From positions 62,001 through 126,000 of the forward strand of contig RSEE01000071.1 of NCBI GenBank assembly GCA_003971905.1: DNA of 64,000 nucleotides, given 5' to 3'. The notes beneath the pieces are model-generated. The model was not told where the DNA came from, did no database searches, and worked only from the letters and a program-made list of their open reading frames with translations. Position numbers and translations under genes: made by a program. Shown piece by piece: positions 8,401 through 57,300 of this stretch (positions are counted from its first letter, which is position 1; each line of letters begins with the position of its first letter). The stretch comes from Moniliella sp. 'wahieum'. Its lineage: Eukaryota.

Positions 8401-9048
8401 GACCACGGAACATGTGCAGGCTTGCACACAGATCATCGTTCGCCGTATGGTTGCGGGACTCATTCTCCCTCTCGAACGCGATGACGCTTCGCCCCCACGC
8501 CGCAAGTTGTATGGCCCGTGTCTTTGCCCTTCGGTCCCTATCATCTCGGCGTCCCCATGACGTTTTTGGTCCGCGATTAGACGACGAAGGCAAAGCTTCT
8601 GGTTGCCGCCGTCCTGAGGCTCCTCGAACAACCTGCCGTTGCCTTGGCGCTCCTCTACTTCTCTGTGTCTAAACAACCATGGCAATGCATGCTTTTAAAG
8701 ATAATCCACTGCCTGATCTGATAGCATCGTGGTACCCTAGCCACCACCCTAGCCGCCAGCCTGGTGGAAATCTGTGGCTAGTCTTGCCACCAGCCTGGTG
8801 GCAATCTGTGGCTAGCCTTGCCATCAGCCTGCCAGCAAGGCTGCGGACTGTCCGGGGATAGGTGGGGGATAGCTGGGGCAACCTGGCGCCAAGCTGTCGG
8901 GCAGATTGTCTCGACCTTGAGACCATCTTGCCGCCAGCTTTTCTTGTACAAGGTTGTGGCAATTCTAATCATAGTCTAACGGTATCAAGTTACTACCCTG
9001 TGGCGAGATCGGCGGCAACGTTGTGACGAGAAATTTCGATTAGCTATG
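5435..9048. mobile_element. TIR DNA transposon (3.6 kb, no intact transposase) inserted into copia copy B
   Basis: Perfect 20-bp TIRs CATAGCTAATCGAAATTTCT (5435-5454 and 9029-9048), imperfect to about 50 bp. TA is duplicated on both sides. The empty site ttcgaTAaacattttgt is present, reverse-complemented, in copy A near 50912-50928. Confidence 0.85.
8740..8835. repeat. Subterminal ~34-bp tandem repeats of the TIR element
   Basis: ccagcctggtgg(a/c)aatctgtggctag occurs twice plus a partial copy. Degenerate repeats (aaccttg..cc..cattctagt) also lie at 5610-5670. Confidence 0.7.
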
Positions 9049-9050
9049 TA

Positions 9051-9429
9051 AACATTTTGTAGCTAGCGTCTGTAACAAGGCGGGGAATGTCACCCGTTCG
9101 GCACAGATAGATGCCTTGGCCCCACGCCGCGACCAAACTCTGGATTCCGGCCATCGAGAGCTGATACGCACTGAATAAGGAAAAGAAAAAGCACAATAGA
9201 AAGAGTCGGGGAGTTGAACATATACAGGGGAGGACCGGTACATGTATATGGATATGAATGAAACAGTGTCAATGCCATCGGCTTGCACGACCCGGCCCTC
9301 TGCAAGGACTATAGAAGCACGACTGGGGTAAAGTGAAGTAAATGAGTTCTTATCCTTGAAGACAGACGGGCGCGCGCCTGAATCATGTTGCGTAGGAAGG
9401 GTGGCTGGCGGAAGGCTCCCCGCGCAGTC
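9051..9429 (-). pseudogene. Copia aspartic protease fragment (copy B)
   Basis: QHDSGARPSVFKDKNSFTSL..IVLAEGRVVQADGIDTV, in frame after the TAG at 9432-9430 and cut at 9050 by the TIR element. Confidence 0.8.
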
Positions 9430-11074
9430 CTATTTAGGAGGGTGAGAAGGAGAAAGTCTGAATGCAACGGAGCCCTCGGGACCAGGAGGAGGCAAAAAGA
9501 CAGACCCGCCGGAAGTCGCCGTACGCGGATACGCTGTCACAGAAGACCCCGGAACTGGGACCAGGTCCAGTTGGCAGCACCCTGGAGCCCGTAAGATGAA
9601 GTTCTATATCCCCGCGTGGACCGGACCCGGACCCAGGTGCAAATCCCCCGCCCCGACGCGCCCAACTCCACTGGGATGAGCCGCTGCTCCGGTACGACCT
9701 GCCACCGCGAGAGGAAGGGTTTCGAGAAGAAGGATGACCACGTGAACTGCGTCCAGGTACGTCCGGAAGAGACAATTGTGGACGGGTCGCGGCCGGCCGA
9801 CTCGCAATCAACAGCAAGAGTTGGTCATAGTCTGCCTCATGATTGCACGCCACGAAAGAAGGATCTTGGAGACCATTGAGCAAAATAGATCGTAGGATAG
9901 GGTCCGGGACTGGTGCCAATCGCACCTCTATTTTGTAAGCGAGATTGCGGTGCCGTTCAACGTAAGCAGCGCCGTTGAATTCCCAATACGAAAGCAATAA
10001 GTTGGTGTAGGATGTCAACGTGTTCTGCGGGGGATGATTGACCGTAACGTTGAAGCAGGATGTGAAATAATATGGAGGCCATGCCGCTAGTCTGAGAAGA
10101 AGGAATGATGAACTGACGTTGCGGTGAAGATGGGCCATGAGGGGAGCATGGAGTTTGCGGTCCAGGAGGCTGTTGTAATAAGGACCACTTTCGCCATTTT
10201 GAAGCAGCGCATGTGCACCACTCGCTGCGTTGTCGAGGCGGTCCAGAATTAAGTCGGCCCACGCCCAAAAGTCTTGTCCGATATTGTACTTGTCCGCAGT
10301 GTTGACACCGCGTGTAAGTTTTGCCAGAAATGGGAAGGGCTCCTCATTCGCGGGTACAACAGGCACGGATGAGGAAGTGTTGGACAATTGCTTCGCAGAT
10401 ACGGTCTTGTCAAGAACCGCCATGGCAGCCGACACGCCCACTTCGGTACCCCACCTATTCTGGGCCAAGTCAACCAGACACTCCGCAGACATAATGGAGC
10501 TGAGCCTTGTCAACATAGACATGATCTCATCGTCGATTGGTGGAGAAATGGACGCAGTGACAGCAGGAATGTGTTCCACGTCAGGCAAAGATGGGACGGT
10601 TGCCCTTGGGGTTGGGACAGGATCCATAGGCTCTGATGTTTCGGAGGATTGCTTGGAGGAAGAGGAGAAGAACCAAGATGAATCGCAACAGCCCAGCATA
10701 ACATGGTGAAAGACGCCACGCAAGTCGTTGAATTTGTGGGCGACAGGCGTTTGGGAAGACGGATCGCTGGAGACCCCTTTTGTAGGATCCCCGATCATTG
10801 TCACGATCTTCTTTTCAAGAGAAGAAATCGGGTCCGACATAGTGCTCAAATGGTTCTGAAAATCAGATGCATAACCGTCCCCTTTGGTGGCTATCAGGGA
10901 CGTCTGTCCCTCGAGAACATGGTAAAGGGTTTTGTACTGGTCAAGCTGATACTTGGCCAGTTGAGAAGCGCGTTCGAAAGAAATTCGGGTCGTAGGAAAA
11001 GGAGATGGAAGATGGTTGTCGACCCATTCGGGGTTTGGGAGGCCAAGAGGAGTAGGGTGTGGAGTGGCGCTCAT
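9430..11074 (-). CDS. Gag of copia copy B
   Basis: 553-aa ORF downstream of the LTR, colinear with copy A gag (YNSLLDRKLHAPL, YVERHR, LLNGLQD). C-terminus is R/G/S-rich. The homologous frame ends SPSHPPK* at the TAG. Confidence 0.8.
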
Positions 11075-18195: not shown

Positions 18196-20899
18196 ATGGC
18201 CTCGCCCTACGAGAAGGACGATGCCAAGGACGCCATTGACGGCCCGGCGGTGCCTGACCTCGCCTCGCAGCCTCAATACGTGCTTGATCATGAGGCTGCG
18301 TTTGGCAACATTGAGGACAACATTCGCCACGAGATTACCGACCATCGTATCAACGACCCCAATCTCGACCCCGACCGCTTTGCTACGCGAGGCAGACCAA
18401 GCCTTGACAAAGGGCGATGAGAAAGCTGAGCTTCGCCTTGAGGATGTAATTGAGGATGACTCGATCTATCCTGAGGTCCGCGCAGCTGTCAGCAACATCG
18501 ATGACCCCAACATGAGGGCCAATACTTTCCGCGCCTGGTCCATGGGTATGGTTGCCTGCACCGTTCTCAGTGGTATCAACATGTACTTTGCCCTCAGGTA
18601 TGTCTTTTTCGCCCAACGATGCTAAAGCAGCAACTGACTTCCGTGGTAATGGTCAGTGGCCTACAGTTACCTTCCCTTCGATTGCGGTCCAGCTGTTCGC
18701 ATACCCGATTGGTGTCGCGATGTCTAAGATCCCTTACCCTCGCCACTGGCCTCTCGCGGAATGGATGAACCCGGGACCGTTCAATATCAAGGAACACTCT
18801 ATGATCTCCATCATGTCCACCGTTGGTGTCGGGTCTGCCTACTCGACGGACATTTTCATCACGCAGCACGCGTACTATCGCCAGCACCTTACCGCTGGCT
18901 ACATGATCCTTCTCACACTCTCGACACAACTCATTGGGTTCTCCTTTGCCGGTTTCTGTCGCCAAATTCTGGTCTGGCCCGCCTCAATGATCTGGCCTAG
19001 CAACCTGACCCAGACGGCTTTCCTGTATTCCATGCACGACGGCAAGAGCCAGGCTCGAAGCTTCCGTGGTTGGTCGCGTTTCAAGATGTTCTCGGTTGTG
19101 GCCTGTGTCATGTTTGTGTGGGAAGTCATCCCCAACTACCTGTTCACTGGCCTGGCCACTTTCTCTTGGCCAGCATGGTGTGCACCCAAGAACAAGGGTG
19201 TCAACCTCGTGTTTGGCGGCACTGGCGGCATTGGCTTCAACTTCATCTCGCTGGATTGGCTCACCATCACCTCAGGGTTGGGCTCGCCGATTTATCAACC
19301 GTGGTTCGCTATCGTAAACACCTTCTGTGGCTACCTGATCATCATTTGCTTTGTGGCACCAATCATGTGGGCGACCAACACCAAGTACACGGGTTACTTC
19401 ACTTTCAGCAGTTCGGGCTTGTACGACCGCTTTGGCCAGCCCTATCAGGTCAGCTACGTGGTGAACGATCGCTTTGAGTTGGACCAGGCCATGTACGACT
19501 CTTACTCGAAAGAGTATCTGTCGGCCACCTTTATTATCAGTTACTGTGTTGGCTTTGGTGCCATTACTAGGTACGTGCTATACGTCCTTTCGTTCCTGGT
19601 TGCGCTACGAAAATTGCCACTGACCTTTATTCTTGTTCTTGTGGCGCACATCAGCACGCTTGTCCACTGTGGTTTGTACTACTGGAAGGACATTCTGCAG
19701 CAAGTCAAGCGTTCGCTCAACGAGGAACCTGACATTCACGCTCGTCTCATGTCGCGTTACGCCGAGGTTCCGTACTACTGGTACGGCCTCACTTTCCTCA
19801 TCTCGTTCGCCCTGGCTGTCCCATCCGTTTACGTGTACCATACCGACCTCCCCATCTGGCTACTGATCATTGCCATCTTGATGAGCGCCGTCTACACCAT
19901 CCCCATTGGAATCATTACTGCTGTGACCTCCAACGAAGTGGGTCTCAACGTGATCGCTGAAATGATTGTGGGTTATGCTCTGCCAGGCAAGCCCGTGGCC
20001 ATGATGATCTTCAAGACCTTTGGCTACATCTCCATGGCCCAGGCCGTCTCCTTTGTCAGTGATCTGAAGTTGGGTCATTACATGAAAGTGCCTCCCCGTG
20101 ACATGTTCTGGGCTCAGATGGTCTCCACCTTCTGGGCATGTCTCGTGCAAGTCGCCGTCACTGCCTTCCTCTTTGGCTCGACCCGCAACTTGTGCAAGGC
20201 CAACCCGGATGAGAAAGTCAGCCCTGCGCACTTTACCTGCGCTACTCACACACCTTCTACTCTGGTACGTTTCTCTCTCTTTTTCAAACTACCACATCTA
20301 AGAAAGTTGTTTCGCTGACCTTGACGAATCTTTTTGTTGTTCACAGCGAGTATCATGGGGTCTCATTGGCCCTGCCCGCACGTTTGCCGTGGGTGAGACA
20401 TACGGTGCGTTGAACATCATGTTCTTGATTGGTGCTTTGATCCCAATCCCCATGGCTACTGGCCAAGAAGTACCCCAACTCTTGGGTGCGCCTTATCAAC
20501 TGGCCCGTCTTCTTCTCCGCGACGGGTATGATGCCGCCTGCGACGGGGATCAACTTCACCTCCTGGTTTGTTGTTGGCTGGTTCTTCCAGTACTACCTCC
20601 GTCGTCACTACTTTGACTTCTGGACCGACTACAACTACATTATCTCTTCCGGTCTCGATGCTAGTAGCGCCATCATTTCCTTCCTTATCTCGCTCTGCCT
20701 GGAGGTGCCCAACACGAACAAGCTTGCTGTGGACAATGTGTTCAACGGCGAAAACCTCTGGTGGGGCAACAACGTTGAGAACACCAACTTGCAGGGCGCG
20801 TTGAGCTTGACCATGAAGGATGTGCCTGTCAATGGCTTTGCACCCGCGCCCAACGGCCAGTGGCTGCCCAACCCCTTTGCCTCGTCTTCGTCGAGTTAA
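18196..20899 (+). CDS. OPT-family oligopeptide/glutathione transporter, about 3 introns
   Basis: Motifs SIYPEVRAAV, NPGPFNIKEH, WPASMIWP, DIHARLMSRY, KLGHYMKVPPR and WWGNNV. Introns at about 18598-18656, 19571-19653 and 20266-20346. Confidence 0.95.
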
Positions 20900-37034: not shown

Positions 37035-37384
37035 TGCTAGAGTGCGACTTGAGAGCACTCGCGATCCTATGGATCAGCTGCAAAGCAGCCTTCAGACAAG
37101 GCGTGAAGGCAAAGTGGTGAGCCACAAGTCTTCAAGCAACGTCTCATTGTGAGGAGCAACAGGTCAAGAAAGGAAGCAGAGGCGTACCTTCAGACAAGGC
37201 GTGAAGGCAAATGGTGAGCCACAAGTCTTCAAGCAACGTCTGAAGGGAAGAGAAAGGAGAGAGAGAAGGAGATGGAGCGAGCAGGGCGTGCGCGGCCTGC
37301 GAGCGGAACGCTTCCGCTCGGCTAGGCGAGCGTCACCGATCCATTGAGGGCCGTGCAGGAGAACCCTAGCAGTACCCTCTAACA
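37035..37384 (-). repeat. 3' LTR, with an internal 56-bp duplication
   Basis: Direct repeat of 41247-41598. Internal copies at 37089-37144 and 37187-37241. Confidence 0.95.
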
Positions 37385-37529: not shown

Positions 37530-40500
37530 TCAAGGAAGAGAAACAGTATATTCAACGCATGGAGGTAAGGAGGAAGCGTAGAAAGTCACAGAGGTCAATT
37601 CAACTTGGAAGTATAAACAACATGTTCCAAGTCGAACAGGATGTTCAACGGATGAGGGAGGAAGCGTAAGAATCATAGAGGTCGATTCAACTGGAGGTAG
37701 AAACAACATGTTCCAAGCCGAAAGAGGATGTTGAACGTGTGCAGGTAAGGAAGCTGTGAAAGTCATAGAGATCGATGCAACTTGGAGATATAGACAACAT
37801 ATGCCAAGTCGAACCGAAGCCAAAGTCGAACAGTAAAAACGTAGAGTTGGAGGTCGAGTAGAACCATAGAAGGCAATTCAACTTGAAAAGAAACCAACAA
37901 GTCAAATTTGGCACAGCCATGAAAAGGAGAAAAGGACCAAATTCAGGACAGAAAAAGGATGACGACTGGTCCAAACCGTCACGAGGACCAGCGTCAACGA
38001 TGGTTCGAAAGTACCTTGTAGGTGATCAGTACACTTCGCAAGCAGCACCGCTGGCAAAGGAGCGACCAAAGTCTTCGGGCCCGGGTGGGATGAAAGTGCA
38101 ACGGCTGCCCATGTAGCGTACACTAGAGACAGTGCCTCCGTCTTGAGACAGCCAAAGAAACTCCCATTTGGGCCAGAAAGGAAACCATAGCCGCCCATGC
38201 AGCCCAATAGTAACAGCACCGCCAATCTTGGAACGGTCAAGGTACCCCGCGCCCGGTCAGGTAGGAAACGGCCACAACCATTAGTGTAGCCTAAACCGTC
38301 AACAGCACCACTGCTCTTGAGACGGTCAAAGTACCCCCGCGCCCGGGTCAGACAGGAAACGGCTACAACCATTAGCGTAACCTAAACCGTCAACCGCACC
38401 ACTGCTCTGAGACGGTCAAAGTACCCCCCCCCGGGTCAAGTAGGAAACTACCACATCGAGTAGTGTAACCGAAACTGTCAACAGCAGCACTTGTCTTGGG
38501 ACGATCAAGGACCCCCGCCCAGGTCAGATAGGGAAGTGCCACCGCTGCCCGTGTAGCCCAAAACATAAACGGTGTCCCCCATCATGGATCGGTCAAAGTA
38601 CCTGTCCGAGTCATGTAAGAAACTGCCACAGCCGCCCGTGTAGCCCCAATCGTAAACGGTGCCTGTGGTCTTGGAACGATCAAAATACCACCCCCGGGTC
38701 AGATAGGAAACCGTCAGAACCGCCCATCATGTTGGATGCAATGGGAGAGAGAGACGTTAAAGCAAAGCACACAAGAGGGCCAACGAGTCCGCACATACCT
38801 CCCGAGCTAACAAGTAAGAAGGGCAGCTAGGGTGGCTTGCGTCGGTGGGCCCCGGCCTTGGGACCTCAGGTCAGTATCGATATTCTCTCCCGACAGACAA
38901 TGTGTGCCTGAGGATCGGTACCGTGCCCATACGCAATTTGGAACAGGCAGGCCTGCCAACACATGGTGAGTATCGCTGAAAAGGGTGGGTGGGAGGGAAC
39001 AGTAAGGCAAGGTGGTCCGGCGCGCGTAAATGCATGTGCGGAAGGACGGGGGCAGCCCCCCTTTTTCCCATCCCGTCGATGGCCGCAAGCTCTGACAAGC
39101 GGCAATCGCCTTCCCTGCGTATGGTGCTAGGCGACCGTGCAAGCTTGTCCGCAAGCTCGGCGACCGTTAATCTCCATGTCCAGCGCCAGGTCGACACCGC
39201 CACACGCCATCGGCCCCCTTGATCGGACGCTCGGCCAATAGCAGCGCGCGACATCGGTCCCCCTTGGTCAGGCACCAGGCCGACACGTCCACGCCGCCAT
39301 CGGCCCCCCTTTGTCGGGCGCCTGGCCAAAGCACCACACGCTATCGGCCCCCCTTCGTCAGGCGCTGGCCAATGGCACCACACGCGGTCGGCCCCCCTTT
39401 GTCGGCGCCTGGCCAATAGCACCACACGCTATCGCCCCCCTTCGTCAGGCGCTTGGCCAATGGCACCACACACGCGGTCGGCCCCCTTTGTCGGGCGCCT
39501 GGCCAATAGTGCACACGCTATCGGCCCCCTTGGTCGGGTGCCTGATGGACGTCAATGGGAACCGGGCCACCAAGCGCCTGGTCGGACGCCATGCCATCCA
39601 CCGGCCCCCCTTTGTCAGACGCAGGCAACCACGACCCCCCTTTGATAGGTGCCAAGCCAACCACGGCCCCCCTTTGTCAGACGCTAGGCCAACCACCGGC
39701 CCCCCTTCATCGGGTACCGGGCCAGCCATCGTTTCCTCTTCATCGGGTGAAGAGGCCCAAGCGCCATCGGCCCCCCTTGGCCAGGCGCCTGGACTTTAAC
39801 AGGTACCAGGCCACCGAGCGCCTGATCAGGTGCCATGCCATCCACCGTCCCCACTGTATCAGGCGCCAGGCCAGCCACCGGCCCCCCTTGATCGGGTGCC
39901 AAGTCAGCCATTGTTTCCCCTTCATCGGTGCAAAGGCACCGAGCGTAATCAGCCCCCCTTACGAGGCGCCGGGACTGCAACGGGTACCGGGCCACCAAGC
40001 GCCTGATCGGTTGTCTGATCCTGAGCCACGATAGCAACTGACATGGACCTGGGGGAATGCACCTCCCGTGACGCATAGTCACCACCCGCTGGGGGTAAGC
40101 CCGGGCCGACAGATGCCATCGCAGCCACAGGATCCGGCTTGGCGATAGCAGCTGGCGTGGACCTGGGGGAATGCACCTCCCGTGACACATAGTCACCACC
40201 CGCTGGGGGTAAGCCCGGGCCGACAGATGCCATCGCAGCCACAGGATCCAGCTTGGCGATAGCAGCTGGCGTGGACCTGGGGGAATGCACCTCCCGTGAC
40301 ACATAGTCACCACCCGCTGGGGGTAAGTCCGGGCCGACAGATGCCATTGCTGCAACAGGGTCATACCCAACAGCAGCTAACTCAGCCCCGGACTTGGGAC
40401 TAGCGGAATGCATCGTCAGTAAATCAGGACCAACGCGTGGCATCTTGCCCAGAGGCTCATGGGCGACAGCAACTGGCTCACACGCGGGCGAAGCAAGGTG

Positions 40501-41246: not shown

Positions 41247-41598
41247 TGCTAGAGTGCGACTTGAGAGCACTCGCGATCCTATGGATCAGCTGCAAAGCAG
41301 CCTTCAGACAAGGCGTGAAGGCAAAGTGGTGAGCCACAAGTCTTCAAGCAACGTCTCATTGTGAGGAGCAACAGGTCAAGAAAGGAAGCAGAGGCGTACC
41401 TTCAGACAAGGCGTGAAGGCAAAGTGGTGAGCCACAAGTCTTCAAGCAACGTCTGAAGGGAAGGAGAAAGGAGAGAGAGAAGGGAGATGGAGCGAGCAGG
41501 GCGTGCGCGGCTGCGAGCGGAACGCTTCCGCTCGGCTAGGCGAGCGTCACCGATCCATTGAGGGCCGTGCAGGAGAACCCTAGCAGTACCCTCTAACA
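41247..41598 (-). repeat. 5' LTR of the pol-less element
   Basis: Direct repeat of 37035-37384. The differences seen are single-base indels. Confidence 0.95.
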
Positions 41599-48170: not shown

Positions 48171-48566
48171 AGCATTGCAATAGTCCTCTGATTTCAGAGG
48201 GGCAACGTAACGATCTCATCCTCTGTATACGTGTCCACCATGCTGGCGATGATCACTACACCGTACATCAATGTGGCTGCCACGCCTGATTGGATGAACC
48301 CTTTGCAGGGTCTAAATCGTGCATCATGCATCATGTGAAGAACCATACACCTGCATCATGAAGCGCAGGCGCGACCCGAAGGGTCTGTGCGGAGAGGCGA
48401 TTGACGTTTTTGGACCTCCAAAACGTAGAGGTCCAAATCATATGAGTAGTGCTGTTCCAACGGTAAAAATGCACATTCTGCCTACCTACTCGTGGCTCCT
48501 ACACATAGATTGTTGGTGCTAAACGCACCGCTGCAGAGGACATCCAGAAATGAATTGTGCAGGGCG

Positions 48567-48794
48567 TGTTGAGCCATCAGGTGGCTCGTGCTTTGGCCAA
48601 TGTCCCTTCAGTTCCTCCTCAGGCCTAGGAGTTCCGTTGTTTTTCTCTCCTGCTTTTCCTTGTTCCGCAGCTTAGCCCCTGGTGGCGACTCGCTGCTTGA
48701 TGTTCCTCTGTAGGCGTGCTGGTTGGCTTAGACCACCACCACCACTAGTGCGATTGCATCACCTCGAGGACCATCTGGACTCCAGATCTCATCA
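48567..48794 (+). repeat. 5' LTR of copia copy A
   Basis: Direct repeat of 54122-54355. Confidence 0.95.
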
Positions 48795-48906
48795 GAGTTA
48801 CAACTCTTCGCTCATCCAGTGAGCAACGGTGATCAACCCACAATTCCCTTTCCATTCCCTCACTCCCTCCGGATCCATCCCTTTCCATCGGCGTCTTTTA
48901 TCAACA

Positions 48907-50543
48907 ATGTGCCATTTCACTTCCTACCCCTCAGCTGTCGAACCCGGACTGGGCCGACCAGCACCTTCTGTCTCCCTTTCCTAAAGAAGGCATTACCTTC
49001 ACGCGTGCATCGCAATTGGCCAACGAACAACTGAGCCAATACCAAGCCCTTTACCATATTCTTGAGGATCACAGACTTTGGTGGCCAAAAACAATGCGTC
49101 TGATTTCAAACCCGTCTCACATTTATCTCAGGCAAACTATCAGCTCTGAGCAAAAGGTCGTGAAAATGGTCGGCGATCCTACTAAGCGACTTCCCAGCGA
49201 TCCGTCTGTCCAGCCGACTGTCGTGTGTCACTATGACGAGTTGCGTAGTGTGTTCCACCGCACTTTAATACATTTTTGCGAACCGTTTTGGTTCTCCGCT
49301 TCTTCTTCCCAACAATCTTCCGCAACATCGGAACCGGAGGATCCCGTTGCGACCCCACGGCCGGTCGCGTCACCTGGTCTCACGACGAATCCATTGTTCA
49401 TACTCATGTGGCAACAACGACACCGTCGATTACTCCTCCGATTGATGAAGCGATTTGTCATCTTTGAAGAAGGCTGCCTGTTCTGGAATATCTGCGGAAG
49501 CCCTCGCGCGTCTAGCCGAGCAGCGTTGGGGTCTTGACGCGAGCACTCCAGCGTTTTTGCAGTTCTAGAGGATTGGCCGTCCGGAGCACCCGCCGGCAAT
49601 GTTTCGTCCGTGACGCCGCCCCTGCCTTCTAACCCGGAGCCCTTCCCAGCCTTGGCCAAAATTACCCGAAGCGTCAACGTTGTGGACAAGTACAATGCGG
49701 GACAATATTTCTGGCCTTGGGCGGACTTGGTTCTGGGCAGACTTGACGATGCGGTGGACGGTGCTCGTGATTGATTCAAACTGGAGAAGCTGATCCCCAT
49801 TACAATCGCTTACTGGATCACAAACTACACGCTCCTCTTTTGGCTCACTTGCACCGCAATGTTAGCGCGTCTGTTCCATATTCTGTTACTACCGGCCTGG
49901 CTTCTGTACTTTTCCGTATCCTGTTACAACGTTTCGGTCAATCGTCACCGGCCGAACATTGTGATATTATCCGGCAGCTTCTTGACCTTCGTCTCGGGTC
50001 TTCGACAGGATCCACATACGTGGAGCGGCACCGCAGTCTGGTTTACAAACTGGAAGTGCGTTTGCGTCGTCCCTTTTCTGAGGACGTCCTCCGTTCTTTT
50101 TTACTTAATGGTCTCCAGGATCGAACGTTTGCGGCATTCACCCTCACACGAACTACGACCAGCTATTGATGTTGGTTTCGAGCCTTCCGGCAGCACCTTC
50201 GTCATCGTCTCTTCCGAACAAGCCTGTAACGCCGGGCTCAGGTGGTCGAAAGCCTTCTCATCCCAGTACATCTCAGGGTGGCGGGTCGTCTCGCAAGGGG
50301 GGCTCTTCCCAATGGAGTGGGGCACCTGGCTCAGGGTCTGGTCAACGTGGAGGTGGGACTGTAGCTTACGGATCTCAAGGTGCCGCCAATTGGACTGCTG
50401 CTAACACTGTGGCTCCTGTTTCGGGTCCTTCTGTGGCAGCATACCCAAACGCTACTTTTTCCAGTGGACCCCTACATTTCCCCCCTATTCCTACCAACGA
50501 TTCCAGTGCGTCCAGTATCTCTCCTTCTCATCAGTCTGAATAG
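48907..50543 (+). CDS. Gag of copia copy A (frameshifted in the assembly)
   Basis: Colinear with copy B gag and ends SPSHQSE-TAG. Confidence 0.8.
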
Positions 50544-53500
50544 GACGGCGCGGGGAGTACTTCGCCAGCCCCCCCTGCGCAACATGATTCGGGCGCGTGC
50601 CCGTCTGTCTTCAAGGATAGGAACGCATTTACTTCACTACATCCTAGTCATGCTTCTATAGTCCTTGCAGATGGACGGGTCGTGCAAGCCGATGGCATTG
50701 GCACTGTTTCTGTCTATATCCATACCTGTACCGGCCCTCCCCTGTTCGTTCAACTCCCTGATTCCTTCTATTGTGCTTCTTTTCCTTATAACTTGGTCAG
50801 TGCGTATCAACTCTCGATGACCGGAATCGAGAGTTTGGTCGCGGCGCGGGGCCAAGGCATCTATCTGTGCGCCGAACGGGTGACATCCCCCGCCTTGTTA
50901 CGGACGCTAGCTACAAAATGTTTATCGAACCATTTCTTCCTTCCCATTCTCCTTCCCCTTCCCCTTCCCACAATGTGCCCTTTCAATCGAACCATCTACT
51001 GTTTTGGACAAGATTCAACGAGTCCATGAACAATGGAACCATATCTCCCTTGACCAGCTCCCACACTTAACCGCCTCTATGCCCCTTCCTTATAGTGTTC
51101 TACCTCAAGATGTAGCGACTGTTCGTCCCCACTGGCATTGCCCTTCCTGTATTCTCTCGCATGCCACAGCCCCTCCTCATTCCCTTTCTCAAACTGCTAC
51201 CCGGAACACCCGACCTTTTTCCTTGATCCACATCGATGTGGTCGACATTCCTCGCCAAGGTGGCGGGGGACACGGGTGGGGTTTAGTTATCGTCGACGAC
51301 TTCACCCGGTACGTTTTCTTAATACTTCCTCTTTCTTCCAAAGGTGAAGCCACTGCATCTCTTCCCCACTTTATTACCCGTGAGCAGCGTCAGCACCCTG
51401 AAAGACCCCTCCAGGTGGTCCGCTCTCCGACAATGCTCCAGAATTGACCTCCGCTATGATCGATTTTTACGACGAACAAGGTACCGTGACAGGAACCACC
51501 AATCCAGGTGAAAGTGCTTCAAATGGTATCGCCGAAAGAGCGATCCGATCCATCATGGACCGTGCTCGCACTTTGCTCGCTTCTACTCGCCTGGTTCCCG
51601 AAGATTGGTGGCATCATGCTCTTCACGCTGCGGCGTACACACACAACCTTGTGCCTCCGAAGGGTTGGGGGGCAACAGCCGTTTTGCACGTTACCACGAT
51701 TTCCCTCCTTCCCTTCCTATGCATGGTTTCGGTACCCTAGCATACCTTCACCTCTTTCCCAACCAGCGTGACGGCGGTAAGTTGGGTCCGCGGGCCGTTC
51801 CTGCCATGCTCATCGGATACGACGAGCGCCATGGTAGTAAGGGTTGGCTTTTGCTCTGCATGGCGGCCCTGGCCTACTTTACTATCGCTGGAAGAAACCG
51901 TTCAAGTGGACCAACCTGTCATACACTGCAGAGCATCCCACACATTTCAACCTTATTCCTTCTAACATTGTTTCTCCTCACGGGACTGGGGGGGTTGAGG
52001 AGACACCGGACGCAAGTTCCCCAAACCTTGCGACTTTACCTGCTCCTCCTACTGTAGCCCATCCTACTCCTACTCCTGCCATTGTATCCCCACCTCCTGC
52101 TGATGCACCCTTGTTCCTAACCAAAACAATCTGCGCTGCGTCGTAATCCGGACGCCGTGCACGACTCCACGCCCCCCTCCCCTTGATCTCTCTCATCCTG
52201 CTCCGATAACCCCCAGAATCCATCTTTCATTCCCTTTCTCTTAAGGTCCCCACCCTCTTTCATCCTCCTGTCTCACTTTCCACTCTTGATTTACCCACTT
52301 TTGTCAACATCTTCTCGGTCCCATGCCCAATACTTCCATGATTCCCGACTCGGACCGCACTCAGCCTCCTCTTGCCCTTGCTCTCGACCACGCGCGAGAC
52401 GAGGACGCACTCCTTCTTACCACCGATGGTGTTCCATTGGCGCCCAAGTCCGTGCGGGCTCTCGTCGGCCACCCTGCATTTGATGATGTACTTGCTGCCA
52501 TGCGCGTTGAACTGACGCGTTTCGATTCTCGCAAGGTGAAGGAGGTGGTGCCCACACCTCCGGGGCACGTGTGTTACCCCGTATTTGGGTTCTCAGTACC
52601 AAGACGGATGCTGAGGGTCGCTTTGTCAAGTATCGTGCGCGTTATGTAGTGGGAGGATATCGCCAACTTCCCGGATCATGGACCAAGTCATTTGCTCCCG
52701 CGGTTCACACCTCCGCCGTCAATACTTTGATCTCAGAGGCGGAAGGGCTCCAGCTCTTTACAGCCGGCGTTGAGGCGGCGTACCTGTATGCGGACGTGAC
52801 CGAAGAGGTCTATGTTCGGCTGCCTCCCTTTTTCCTAGAAGGGAAAGGCAAGTGTTGGAAACTGAAGAAGAGTCTTTATGGTCTCCATTAAAGTGGAGCC
52901 AATTTTGGTGATTGGCTGCGTACTTTCCTTTGTGACCGTCTTGGCTTTACCAGTCTCAAGTCGGAGCCTTGCTCTTCATTCGTCGTACCCAATCCTTGGA
53001 TCTCATTCTATTGGCCATCCACAACTGGATTTTCTTGTTGCTTGCCGTTCGGGATCTCATTCTATTGGCCATCCACACTGACGATTTTCTTGTTGCTTGC
53101 CGTTCGGGGGTCATCTACGATTCCTTCCTTGTTGAGCTTCGCCGCCATATCGAAATTAAATCCAATGGCCCACCACTTATTCGTTTCCATCTCGGATGCC
53201 AGTACGACCGCATTGATGGGCACCTCTACGTGAGCCAACCCAAATTCATTACTGAAACGCTTGCCACCCACGACATGATTCACGACCATCCTCGACGTCT
53301 CCCGCTCAGTCACACTCTTCCTCCTCCCCTACGTCCCGAGCACGAACCACGATCCACAACACGCGACGAGAATCACGCCTACCGTTCTATGGTCGGGTCT
53401 GCCATGTGGTCGGCTCGCATGTCTCGTCCCGACACCTTGTTTGCCGCCACCTTCTTGGCTCGTTTCTTAGATGACCCTTCTCGTGCTCACCGTGACGCTG

Positions 53501-54074
53501 CCGTTGGGTTGTTGCGATACCTGAAGGGTACTGGACCATTCCCTCCGCTTAACACCTGTTGACCGCGCAAGACCCCTCCTTGAACTGCATACGGATGCTT
53601 CTTTTGCTTCGGACAGGCGTTGCTCACGGTCTGTTTCCGGGTACGTTGTGTTTGTGTATGGTGTGCCTGTCTCGTGGAATACCAAGACACAGAACCAAGG
53701 GATGAGCAACACACAGCCGCTTCCGAATACTTGGCCATGGGTGATGGTTTGCGCGATGCACTCTTTGTGCGCAACATTCTTGAGCTGTTGGGCACATTTG
53801 TTCTGCTGCACACCCAATTCAGCTCTTTGTGGACAACACTGCAGCAAAGGCTCTTGCCGAGAAGCTTGGCAGCCTGGGTAAGATCCGCGAGATCGATGTG
53901 TGGTACCATGAGGTGCGAGAACGCATCCATGGTGGCGAGCTTGTCGTTCATCATGTCCCGGGCGTGGATCATTTATCTGATTGGTTCACCAAACCTGTTG
54001 GTCTTCCCAAACTCCTTTCCACATCTCAACAATTCGATTTGGCTCCCCTTTCTTCTCGTTTGGTTTCTTCTTAA
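50544..54074 (+). CDS. Pol (PR-IN-RT-RNase H) of copia copy A (frameshifted in the assembly)
   Basis: PR HDSGAC. IN H..H/CPSC, IHIDVV, IVDDFTRY, SNGIAER and GKLGPRA. RT KYRARYVVGGYRQ, LKKSLYGL, HTDD and YRSMVGS. RH DNTAA, IDVWYH and SDWFTKP. Confidence 0.92.
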
Positions 54075-54121
54075 CTTGTTTTGGCCTACGAGTTTCCTTT
54101 GGTCCCTTGGCCCGGGGGGGG

Positions 54122-54355
54122 TGTTGAGCCATCAGGTGGCTCGTGCTTTGGCCAATGTCCCTTCAGTTCCTCCTCAGGCATAGGAGTTCCGTTGTTTTCT
54201 CCTGTTTTTCCTTGTTCCGCAGCTTAGCCCTGGTGGCGACTCGCTGCTTGATGTCCCTCTGTAGGCGTTGCTGGTTGGCTTAGACCACCACCACCACCAC
54301 CACTAGCGCGATTGCATCACCCTCGAGGACCAACTGGACTCCAGATCTCATATCA
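54122..54355 (+). repeat. 3' LTR of copia copy A
   Basis: Direct repeat of 48567-48794 with a few substitutions and indels. Confidence 0.95.
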
Positions 54356-57300
54356 GGGCGCCAGATCGATTACAAATATACAAACAAACCTTTCGCCACT
54401 CAGGGAATGAAATGAAGGTACTCGCTGACGGATTGTTCTCGGCTCGGTACTCAGTCTCTGTCGTACGGTACTACTACAATTGTGCGGCCCGTTCCGCCTC
54501 TCTCCCCCCCATTCTGTTGTGCCTCCGGGCTTCCTTTCCCTGATTGCATCATCACCACTTCTTCCCCTGCCTTGTTCGCCTCCCACAGGTCTCTAGATCT
54601 GATCCTCCGGGGCGGGGTTCAGACCCCACTCTCGTCTCGTCTCGTCTCGTCATCGATCATCATTATGTGTAGACGAGAGACTATGAAAGCAAAGGAAAAA
54701 TCAAGTTAAAGTGGTTTTCATGTTCTTGATGAGGTTCAACGTTCGTTCAGCTTGAAGCTTGACCCATCATGCTCCTCAAGCTTCAGAGCTTCAGCCCCAT
54801 ACCCCACACGCCGAGGGCTAGCCTTAGCGTTGCAAACGACCCGAGATGCTGGTGATATGAAAAGATGGAGAGTCGGTACTTGGTTGGCGTAGACGACGTT
54901 GAACGTTGAACGTGTTGAACGTTGGAACGTTGACGAATTATTGAGAAAACCTTTAAGGTTTTAAGGTTGAGGCGTTTTGGCGTTTTGGCGTTTTGGCGAG
55001 TTGACGCGTTGACGCATTATTCACGCGTCTCGGGCCAAAAAAGCTGATCGCTGATCCCTCGATCGTCTCGATCACTAGCGCACTAGCACTATTCAATATT
55101 CAATCCGATTCTCCGTCCGCGCGCAAACGTCCAACGCGCTGTGGCAGTGCTGTGGGCGTGCTGTGCCTCGAGAGCTTTTCTGTATCGGAGCAGGCGTGCG
55201 CAGAATACACAAACGTACACATCGCATCTATCTGGGTACTCAGTTGCCATAGGATGAGTCAGTGCTCGTAGCCAGATCATCACTCGCTCACTGGCTCACT
55301 CCGGCCGTCCAACGTCCAACGGCCACATGCCACTTGCTGTCTGGTTTTTTGGTTTGTGGAGTACTGCTTCTGCATCGGCCGGGTTGGTTCAGCCACCCAT
55401 GCGTAACGCCCCACGCGTCACGCGCCATACATCAGCATCATGCACATGGGAGCCCCTTCGTAGGTCTCATATCTGTTTGGATCGAGCTCACTGGCATGAT
55501 CGATGCGTGACTTATGACGCGTGGCGCGGTCTGTAGCATGCATGATGCGTGATGCATGATGCATGATGGGGGGCAGTGCGTCTGCTGTCTAACTTGGTAG
55601 GCCACAGAGCAGACAGCCGCAACCGAGGCCCTCGGCACCATCGCAAGGCCAACAGGGCTCGGATCTCGGATGGCAGTGCTAAGCGTGACTGCCTGCTACT
55701 GCCCTGGTGTGCCTTTCAACCGAGTGAAGCTGAAAGCTTAAAATGTGGACAAGGACTAGGCGCTACGGCGCAGGGAGAGAACATGGATATGGACCGAGGA
55801 CCAGAGCGAGGTGCGTGAAATCATAAATCAGGCCAATCAGGAATCACTTGCAAGACTCGCTTATGACATCACTAGCTTGAAGCTTGACTGGCTCACTGGC
55901 ACCCCCAGAAAGCACGGATATCACACTTACCTTGCAGCCACCCGCATCCCATGTCACATGCATCACATCGGTCCAACGTACAATTTCAATGGCTAGCTGG
56001 GGTGGATGCGATCGAATGGGCTTTCAAGCTTCCGGCTCTACCACTGCCACATCCATCCGATCCGAGCTGTCCGCTTGAAGCCGAATACTCATCATGCATC
56101 GCACACCATGCATCATGCATCATGCACTCCCGCTTGGGCCTGGTGTGCGTATAAAATTTGAGAAGGCACAATGGCTGCCTAGGACGGCCGGGCGGCTGCC
56201 CGCACCATGCACCAACGTCCAAACGTCCAAACGTCCAAACGTCCAATCCGCACCCACGGCGATCATCGATCGCCGATCATCCATTGTCTTTTCACATTTC
56301 AGCGCGTGCGTGAGTCACTCACTAGTCAAGCTAGTCAAGCTTCAAGCGCAGAGGCACATGCATGACGCGTGACGCATGGTGGATGATGCAAATGGGTGAT
56401 CGATGGTCGCTCTGTACCAAGTACGGAAAACCTTGCTTTTGCAGCGAGATTGGCACATCATGCATCATGCATCAGGACCAGGGCACATCTGAAAGAACGG
56501 CGTCAAACTGCGTCACGCCATCAAGCGTCGCATCGTGCATCATGCATCATTCATGCTATCGAGTCACGAGTCACATTCACGAGTCACATTTACATCACGT
56601 ATGATCGCCACAAGTGACGCGTTCGACATCCCAGGGGAGAATGTGCGCCGGCTAGTGCAGGCTAGTGCAGGCTAGCGCAGGCGAGCGCTAGCTAGACACG
56701 ACTGGTTGGAGTCTGCATTCCTAGCAAGGGGGTAAGCGCCTCACAGGTCGGCAGTGCGCTGCCACCGCTGGGCATGAGAGCAGTGTGCCACGGGTGGCGT
56801 TGGGCCAGAGCGGGGCTAGGAGGCACCAGGTTGTGTCGCAGCACGGGGGCGCTTTGGAGGGGACGTGGTCCAGCACCGCAGCACCCTGGGGGGCACGGAA
56901 GCACCCTTCGGTTCCCCCGTGCGCGCTGCTGCGCCGCACCCCTGCATCTACGCAGTCGCCCCAAGCACGTGCAGGCACACCGCCCCTGGGCACTGCGCGG
57001 CTGCGGTGCGACGCATGTGACATGTGACACCCACCGGCCGGAGGCTCCCTCGGCTTGTGCGCCCCTCTCCCCCACGCGTGCTGTGGGCTGGGAGGCTGGG
57101 AGGACATGCCTTCCGGGCGGACAATGTGGCTGGAGCCCGGTGTGCCTGCAGTACTCCGACGGTGTCTCTGGTGTGTCTGTCAAATTTCCACCTTGGGGAG
57201 TAGCCCGGTGACCGGTGACAAGTACCATGGATCCCTGCCGTGGCCCAGTGCCGCGTGGGCAGCCGAAAAACTTGAAGCTTGACTGCAGGCGCGCAGACGG

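Follow-up and report, generated by a model that had tools for sequence, protein, structure and literature searches.

Two copia copies and an in-frame TAG in the window

We analysed a window of 64,000 nt from the basidiomycete Moniliella sp. 'wahieum' (assembly GCA_003971905.1, contig RSEE01000071.1, positions 62,001 to 126,000 of the forward strand), in which two broken copies, A and B, of a Ty1/copia retrotransposon family are found. In this family, gag and pol share one reading frame and are separated by a single TAG codon that is inherited among related families, and pol is most likely expressed by programmed readthrough of this UAG. Copy A is a full-length element (48567-54355, forward strand) with the structural features of Ty1/copia elements, namely long terminal repeats (LTRs) with TG...CA ends, a target-site duplication, and a polypurine tract (Table 1). 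Its pol domains follow the order protease, integrase, reverse transcriptase (RT), RNase H of Ty1/copia (Pseudoviridae), and a related protein, P0001, carries PF22936, PF00665, and PF07727. When copy A pol was compared with Pfam, the protease family PF22936 was significant (E 9.6e-9), and rve and RVT_2 stayed under the cut-offs on fragments. No Pfam family was matched by the copy B gag frame, nor by one 209-codon piece of copy A gag.

An earlier note, made from the letters of this DNA, had described a gag-TAG-pol junction with a GC stem-loop downstream. Both the TAG and the one-frame peptide SPSHQSE-stop-DGAGSTSPAPPAQHDSGAC were found in the sequence, and the two proposed stem arms do pair (seven Watson-Crick pairs and one G-U pair). 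The note had also placed the protease in the gag frame. This holds for the relatives L089 and L095, whose gag frames are open into the TAG, whereas copy A is open for only 144 codons upstream; the statement therefore rests on the relatives, because 10 and 25 frame-breaking indels lie in copy A gag and pol, respectively (57 indels relative to L089, 42 of them not multiples of three). Copy A gag is homologous to the open frames of 494 and 586 codons that end at TAG in these relatives. A short internal tandem duplication was also seen in the RT region of copy A (window 52960-53110), where a stretch coding for LDLILLAIH is present twice.

Directly after the 5' LTR, the motif GAG(T/C)TACA occurs in copy A (window 48795-48803) and in five of six other copies compared, which represent five families (L089, L093, L111, L112, and L113); the sixth, L092, deviates after GAGTTA. 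This is not a TGG-type primer site. Pairing with a fragment from the anticodon arm of a Thr or Tyr tRNA is conceivable, and the motif is regarded as a putative primer site.

Copy B, on the minus strand, was said to have the same stop and stem. Its TAG is indeed present in the protease frame, but the 572-codon gag frame misses it by one base and ends at a TAA in another frame because of indels in the gag tail. Likewise, the register of the stem is kept, but one pair is replaced by a C-A mismatch and the predicted fold favours another hairpin. The possibility suggested by copy B, that gag truly ends at a TGA or TAA one base 5' of the TAG, was rejected, as the long frames of other copies enter the TAG. 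In gag (48900-50540), copies A and B are about 70% alike by eye, and in the protease region (50541-50950) they are 89-92% alike; the shift falls at the junction, and one protease type is found with several gag types. This contrast may reflect recombination or relaxed selection on gag.

Table 1. Positions of the features of copies A and B within the window
Feature	Positions	Strand	Remarks
Left target-site duplication GGGCG	48562..48566	+	Same sequence as 54356-54360
5' LTR of copy A, TG...CA	48567..48794	+	Against the 3' LTR, 5 mismatches in 224 aligned bases and 6 gap blocks
Primer-binding-site-like motif GAGTTACAA	48795..48803	+	Adjoins the end of the 5' LTR
gag, broken in copy A	48907..50540	+	Last 144 codons open, in the frame of the TAG
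In-frame TAG closing gag	50541..50543	+	Present in 24 of 24 junction-bearing loci of the window family
Nucleotide-conserved block 3' of the stop	50544..50585	+	14 codons here, 15 in most relatives
Stem 5' arm GCGCGGGG	50548..50555	+	8 pairs in copy A; 10-11 in several relatives
Stem 3' arm CCCTGCGC	50573..50580	+	Column conservation 0.91, against 0.75 in the loop
Protease catalytic motif DSG	50586..50594	+	No in-frame ATG between the stop and its Asp
pol, broken in copy A (protease, integrase, RT, RNase H order)	50544..54074	+	25 frame-breaking indels relative to L089
Polypurine tract G8	54114..54121	+	Directly 5' of the 3' LTR
3' LTR of copy A	54122..54355	+	Compared with the 5' LTR
Right target-site duplication GGGCG	54356..54360	+	Matches the left duplication
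Copy B gag frame from likely ATG	9434..11074	-	572 codons; ends at TAA one base before the TAG
Copy B TAG	9430..9432	-	In the protease frame
Copy B stem-loop	9389..9426	-	10 of 11 pairs with one C-A mismatch; loop of 16 nt; another fold is lower in energy over 83 nt
Copy B protease region	9045..9429	-	Element truncated after the protease

The TAG is inherited across families

A DNA search with the window family gave 33 matches, 30 of them with loci, which together with L076 yielded 24 distinct junction-bearing loci. Excluded from this count were L025 and L026 (duplicates of L014 and L018), L020, L021, L028, and L030 (no junction match), L027 (an internal deletion and no junction), and three matches without loci. 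As a result of this deletion, the protease motif of L027 directly follows a part of gag that lies early in the gene. The family-wide alignment, a check that the earlier note had proposed, showed the TAG at the same place in all 24 junctions, followed by G in 23 (A in L006).

When the genome was searched with the protease, 130 matches were obtained, and these revealed younger families of the same layout: F2, the sister of the window family, with six identical junction copies; F4, F5, and F6; and the single copies L080, L084, L087, and L097 (F2 to F6 are labels coined in this analysis). A pattern for the first 19 nt 3' of the F4/F5 stop occurred at 74 places, and the same pattern prefixed with TAG occurred at the same 74 (20 in F4, 54 in F5), with G after the TAG each time. 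UAG was the stop in all 17 lineages compared. Gag frames running into the TAG measured 494 codons in L089 and 586 in L095, and ranged from 434 to 594 codons across the window family, F2, F4, F5, and F6; the layout is one frame with a single inherited stop. In the gag frames of L089, L095, L071, L112, L067, and L113, no CCHC zinc knuckle was visible, and the C-terminal tail was long and rich in Gly, Ser, and Arg.

The families F4 and F5 are both young and abundant, and their pol frames measure 1147-1202 codons. Their Pol proteins have 673 of 1087 residues in common; of 427 identical residues with four- or six-fold degeneracy, however, only 127 are encoded by the same codon, a level indicating saturation. 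Between L089 and L088, 608 of 994 Pol residues are identical, and families with the TAG at the shared place are only about 45-60% alike in Pol. Conservation of the protein while synonymous sites are saturated implies that Pol behind the stop is expressed, and the codon comparison shows pol behind the stop to be under purifying selection.

An independent assembly, represented by a Logan record, contains a Gag that is 67% identical to F2 Gag and ends on the same residues as F2 gag, as well as a 93% identical Pol (P0001, known from protein records) whose call starts directly past the junction. One 5549-nt contig is listed for both proteins, which therefore probably derive from one element. Apart from this 93% relative, all other best database matches to Pol were only 25-32% identical, and a profile search of protein cluster representatives gave one close match, starting in the integrase region, with the rest distant. 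No relative was confirmed among the 104 pattern matches of a metagenome scan, and a gapped junction pattern, which was too strict or mis-spaced, had no match in the genome.

Could the stop simply be the product of decay or of faulty assembly? Copies A and B are both broken, and frameshifts in several actin and tubulin genes indicate an indel-prone assembly, so that some of the breaks in copies A and B may themselves be errors. However, this codon holds an unchanged position in 24 of 24 and 74 of 74 junctions, also between families that are only distantly alike in Pol, and the Gag of the independent record ends at the same point. The recurrence of the stop goes far past what chance would give. 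These data bear out the earlier view that the stop is unlikely to be decay or sequencing error, and we regard that explanation as refuted. The existence of a copia lineage in basidiomycetes whose gag and pol are separated by an inherited in-frame UAG is well supported. In a related decayed family (L098 and L099), the protease motif is present and no TAG is found at the usual place.

Nucleotide-level constraint 3' of the stop

In copy A, the block that follows the stop consists of a G at +1, a 4-nt spacer, a G-rich run at +7 to +12, and the stem-loop. Across 28 aligned junctions, column conservation was 0.55-0.60 upstream of the stop, 0.74 in the spacer, 0.87 and 0.91 in the two arms, and 0.75 in the loop; it was 0.87 in the 21 nt past the stem and 0.77-0.79 thereafter. 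When F2 was compared with three window-family copies, 12, 11, and 12 of the 14 third codon positions directly after the TAG were identical; in both of the following blocks, where the catalytic motif lies, only 3-4 of 14 were identical. Codon positions 1 and 2 were not raised in the first block (19-22 of 28, versus 24 of 28 in the second), which argues against a patch of recombination.

The same codon was used at 5-6 of 6-7 identical four- or six-fold degenerate residues in this block (5 of 5 in copy A), versus about 31% in the remaining pol. Fisher's test gave p values of 0.004-0.02 for four copies with a long background and 0.05-0.06 for two truncated copies with little background, values that come from few codons, one family pair, non-independent comparisons, and a block chosen post hoc. 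F4, F5, F6, and L084 share GAA CTC GSG RGC directly 3' of the stop, and the third bases of the first four codons agree among F4, F5, and F6; the corresponding three-way background is 28/228 at four-fold, 13/132 at six-fold, and 67/167 at two-fold sites. The G-rich run at +7 to +12 is the feature common to nearly all families. Because third positions match here while Pol synonymous sites are saturated, an RNA-level signal is indicated 3' of the stop; within these comparisons, nucleotide-level constraint immediately 3' of the stop is shown. Raised synonymous conservation past the stop, as found here between the window family and F2, is the signature that has been used to find readthrough elements (PMC3159437; here and below, statements on published work refer to the accessible passages of the cited sources).

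The block might instead act as a promoter or start signal, with Pol made from a junction promoter or by re-initiation. A weak promoter has been reported at the junction of the Candida element Tca2 (PMC2194720), and in F5 an ATG does lie in frame after the stop and before the catalytic Asp. No such ATG, however, is found in the window family, F2, F4, or F6 (AUG starts only were considered), and a separate start leaves unexplained why gag and pol have kept a common frame in families that are saturated at synonymous sites. A separate Pol start fits the data poorly, and we consider it quite improbable.

Support for and limits of the stem-loop

The same stem register with at least 7 pairs occurs in 20 of 24 window-family loci, with 10-11 pairs in several, and also in F2; these are related sequences, counted without a control. 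In the window family, the spacer is usually 3-4 nt and the loop 14-22 nt. Over 45 nt, folding was more stable than that of shuffled sequences in L034 (z -2.4), L043 (z -3.9), and F2 (z -2.9), a comparison from which L084 was excluded because its row was aligned to a wrong TAG, and one-sided changes that preserve pairing were found in L007, L017, L019, and L076. In folds of -40 to +57, an outer helix enclosing the stop was also predicted for copy A, L004, L009, and L015, between a GCGTCC-like word (about 50507-50513) and GGGCGC at the catalytic motif (50592-50597).

Several points weigh against readthrough or against the part of this stem in it. Folding over 80-83 nt was not significant relative to shuffles for the window copies (z -0.40 for copy A and +0.15 for copy B), and was weak over 45 nt in copy A (-1.23), copy B (-0.75), and L035 (-0.9). 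Pair-breaking changes occur in L008, L012, L014, and L018, and a two-sided compensatory change was not seen in the stem across the compared copies. F4, F5, and F6 keep the UAG without a strong local stem (z +1.05, +0.22, and +0.23), and the stem is retained in a lineage that has TCG in place of the stop. Moreover, the stem begins 3-4 nt past the stop, inside the 11-12 nt covered by the ribosome. Validated viral stimulators begin at least 8 nt 3' of the stop, and with the stop codon in the A site the ribosome encloses 11-12 nt (PMC13517186). A 3'-proximal stem has been reported for Drosophila headcase (PMC3159437). Since the stem starts within ribosome-covered nucleotides, its 5' arm may act as primary sequence. 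By eye, only 3-4 pairs, which could belong to an H-type pseudoknot, are possible between the loop and downstream sequence in the aligned junctions.

Taken together, the stem is supported by conservation among relatives, not by folding energy in copies A and B. The pairing exists, but the short spacer, the lack of a two-sided compensatory change, and the stemless F4 to F6 make the role that the earlier note gave it doubtful. The least certain point of our interpretation is the identity of the stimulator; we give slightly less than even odds that it is this stem and not the primary sequence or a structure farther away.

Relatives that lack the stop

In F2, six copies with the TAG stand against 18 that carry an in-frame 81-nt deletion removing the stop and the 5' arm. 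Loci of the deletion derivative are L044-L059, L072, L078, and L088; those of the parent are L038-L042, L071, and L093. Elsewhere, the deletion copies hardly differ from F2 (one comparison gave 4 mismatches in 1632 bases), except that about 240 nt with the gag start are missing as well. The 81-nt deletion was considered as a spliced-out intron and rejected, because it lacks GT-AG borders and extends 18 nt beyond the stop. Three further copies (L060, L079, and L096) have TCG in place of TAG, with different deletions of the gag start. In two others (L069 and L070), AGG replaces TAG and gag is more diverged; the 5' region of L069 is about 340 nt shorter.

Because all outgroup families have the TAG, three separate losses of the stop are indicated, each of which seems, from these alignments, to have been accompanied by a shortened gag 5' end. 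A tree of the protease region was poorly resolved within the F2 group and included truncated rows, and was not used for the order of events. The stop-less copies may be derivatives that make only a shortened Gag-Pol and depend on full Gag from their relatives. With the stop gone, one lineage (the 81-nt deletion) can do without the stem, yet it is kept in the TCG lineage. No stop-less F4 or F5 copy was found among those fetched, and deletion of the whole motif would escape the pattern count. Absence of the stop from other intact copies had been named in advance as a finding that would speak against readthrough; stop-less copies do occur near F2, but as gag-5'-shortened derivatives.

These copies raise the question of whether the elements divide their labour, with TAG elements supplying Gag only and stop-less derivatives supplying Pol in trans. 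The coexistence of F2 (6 TAG copies) with 18 copies lacking the stop and gag start, 3 with TCG, and 2 with AGG would be consistent with such a system. On the other hand, the young and abundant F4 and F5 keep the TAG in 74 of 74 junctions and have pol frames of 1147-1202 codons with no stop-less copy among those fetched, and pol behind the TAG is under purifying selection. Trans-complementation fits these data poorly and is very improbable.

Another rival explanation is stage-specific A-to-I editing, by which UAG would become a Trp codon in some transcripts. Editing would account for the stop always being UAG, and fungal editing prefers U at -1 and corrects premature UAG codons in filamentous ascomycetes (PMC11156358). 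Nevertheless, the passages of that source describe ascomycetes only, and the UAG of the window family is not predicted to lie inside a hairpin loop. Editing further predicts copies with TGG, of which there are none in 74 F4/F5 junctions, none in 24 of the window family, and none among the F2 relatives, with the reservation that the copies are not all independent. We view this explanation as far-fetched.

Programmed readthrough as the most likely mechanism

From the comparisons above, programmed UAG readthrough is the most likely mechanism, with a probability that we put at roughly 0.65. The two broken window copies belong to a Ty1/copia family of an isolated basidiomycete clade in which gag, UAG, and pol form one frame. 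Most ribosomes would terminate at the UAG and release Gag, and a minority would insert an amino acid there and continue into Gag-Pol, thereby setting the Gag:Pol ratio. The signal is proposed to lie 3' of the stop and to consist, in nearly all families, of UAG-G and the G-rich run at +7 to +12, to which the window family and F2 would add a block of 42-45 nt able to form a stem-loop of 10-11 pairs.

Readthrough is favoured because constraint lies 3' of the stop, because UAG-G is the context of type III readthrough sites, and because the one-frame layout is kept over deep divergence. It is favoured also because four of five families lack an in-frame ATG before the catalytic Asp and because a motif resembling the Ty1 Gag/PR cleavage site lies upstream. 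This motif, ARAHIA or ANAHVA in F4 and F5, is found about 22 codons 5' of the stop, a likeness judged by eye, and suggests that Gag-Pol probably includes the stretch directly 5' of the stop. In addition, the stop-less relatives arose through a non-GT-AG deletion or through TCG or AGG; neither a clean intron loss nor TGG was found among the copies seen. Hopping over the stop was considered and rejected by eye, since in most lineages the codon on the 5' side of the stop differs from the one on its 3' side.

To the points raised above against readthrough, two must be added. Tca2, the nearest precedent, failed a test of local readthrough. Furthermore, the codon kept in every lineage, TAG, is also the sole stop codon usable as a splice acceptor, and for this reason regulated splicing is the main rival. 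In that case, unspliced RNA would give Gag, an in-frame intron ending at the TAG would be removed inefficiently to give Gag-Pol, and the conserved block would tune the acceptor. The TAG is followed by G in all 17 compared lineages, as at a 3' splice site, and the upstream pyrimidine fraction is 0.59-0.91 in the window family. Words resembling the branch points of host introns (CTCAC, CTCAT, and CTGAC) lie 8-14 nt upstream in several families, but they occur in 7 of 17 lineages, against a background of 25%. Good phase-0 donors exist in single copies, namely L092 (48 and 132 nt), F2 (324 nt), and L089 (489 nt); by contrast, no canonical phase-0 donor was found in F4 or F6 gag, none in F5 nearer than 1218 nt, and none shared across families. 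Thus the conserved phase-0 GT donor and branch point of a spliceosomal intron were not found, canonical donors being the only ones scored. Splicing does set the Gag:Pol ratio in plant and Drosophila copia, though there it yields Gag and not Pol (PMC5580714). In the elements studied here, conservation climbs after the TAG and not before it (0.55-0.60 upstream), and no clean deletion ending at the TAG was seen among the fetched or counted copies, although stop-less copies do amplify. Regulated splicing is therefore judged unlikely, if less so than the other alternatives.

The earlier proposal of a basidiomycete copia lineage using UAG readthrough consequently stands in its first part, the inherited in-frame UAG, and readthrough itself is the best available reading of the sequences. 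A more elaborate scenario is possible, and we hold it to be rather unlikely as a whole. It would comprise a clade with gammaretrovirus-like UAG readthrough whose signal lies nearer the stop than validated viral stimulators, with a G-rich run in the ribosome entry channel and a stem 3-4 nt downstream. This control would have been discarded repeatedly by three parasitic derivatives without the stop and the gag 5' end, which would make a shortened Gag-Pol and borrow full Gag, one of them outnumbering its parent by 18 to 6.

Host genes and other features of the window

By eye, host introns in actin and tubulin genes have the donors GTACGT or GTCCGT and the branch points CTGAC or CTCAC. Several actin and tubulin copies (L116-L137) are diverged and do not have the same introns, and single-base frameshifts occur in some of them; these features suggest a duplicated or mixed, indel-prone assembly. 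Elsewhere in the window, an OPT oligopeptide transporter gene lies at 18516-20318, with its nearest named matches (42-47%) in basidiomycetes (Tilletiaria, Tilletia, Calocera, and others). These place the host among basidiomycetes, without a close relative among the named matches. Direct repeats at 37035-37384 and 41247-41598, about 4.2 kb apart, flank arrays of 87-91 nt and 114 nt units (38247-38687 and 39546-40370). This region is possibly another LTR-like element with a repeat-rich minus-strand open reading frame.

Comparison with known systems

Among known elements, Tca2 (pCal) of Candida albicans is similar in being a fungal Ty1/copia element with gag and pol in one frame, one stop between them, and a predicted structure downstream (PMC2194720, PMC7175516). 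It differs in its UGA, its 8-nt purine-rich spacer, its predicted pseudoknot, and its ascomycete yeast host, whereas the elements studied here have UAG, a 3-4 nt spacer, and a simple stem. The likeness described here is one of layout, and no close named relative appeared among the database matches to Pol. The earlier note had called readthrough documented for Tca2, which overstates the case. When 300 nt around the Tca2 stop were placed in S. cerevisiae, readthrough was 0.3%, a background level equal to the control (PMC2194720), and "documented" is too strong for this reason. A 2020 review calls the mechanism of Tca2 Pol synthesis undetermined (PMC7175516), and suppression of the Tca2 stop is stated as fact in PMC5580714.

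VdLTRE5 of Verticillium dahliae, also Ty1/copia, has the gag-stop-pol layout in a filamentous fungus and no CARYYA motif; it differs in having UGA and two copies, and no signal is identified in the passages of the source (PMC3441728). Tj1, Tosmo1-3, and Tcry1 of fission yeasts likewise have a conserved in-frame stop between gag and pol together with its context, and several copies here resemble them in having GAA or AAA before the stop. They belong, however, to the Ty3/gypsy superfamily and use GAA-UGA-CU as a signal described as sequence only (bioRxiv 10.1101/2022.12.06.519325). The UGA of the fungal precedents Tca2, VdLTRE5, and Tj1 is not found in any of the 17 lineages compared here. Ty1 of Saccharomyces shares the copia domain order and, by eye, a cleavage-like motif (ARAHIA/ANAHVA here, TARAH/NVSTS in Ty1; PMC6952103), but it uses a +1 frameshift instead of a stop (PMC7175516).

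Type III cassettes, such as those of Moloney murine leukaemia virus (MuLV) gag-pol, walleye dermal sarcoma virus (WDSV), and tombusviruses, combine UAG-G with a 3' element (PMC3159437, PMC13517186). The same UAG-then-G was found in 23 of 24 window-family and 74 of 74 F4/F5 junctions. In MuLV, the stop lies within the protease N-terminus, as it does here, and some copies have the listed hexamers UAGGGA or UAGGAU. Listed type III hexamers (UAGGGV, UAGGUA, or UAGGAU) are present in L005, L009, L016, L022, L023, and L080, but most copies have the unlisted UAGGAC or UAGGAA. Other differences are the fungal copia setting, the lack, as judged by eye, of a convincing pseudoknot, and the spacer, which is 3-4 nt in the window family and F2 and not the 8-nt purine-rich spacer of MuLV. 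The site most likely works, as far as its sequence can indicate, like an MuLV-type readthrough site; because its spacer differs from that of MuLV, we do not class it as one.

No report of UAG bypass in a basidiomycete copia element, or of gag-truncated stop-less derivatives, was found in the openly accessible literature, although supplementary tables may list such elements. The layout is rare but known, and these elements differ from the fungal precedents in the UAG, the type III-like context, and the constrained block after the stop. These in-frame stops should not be taken as marks of pseudogenes in annotation. Of the copia elements with gag-stop-pol layout, Tca2 is the sole case tested for the way in which Pol is made, and local readthrough was not seen there (PMC2194720, PMC7175516). 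The present clade offers what Tca2 lacked, namely saturated families that pinpoint a constrained block of 42-45 nt and natural stop-less controls. If readthrough does occur, the clade would provide a UAG recoding signal of type III-like form for both copia elements and fungi. As a short and portable sequence, it could then be used to test the action of structure so near a stop.

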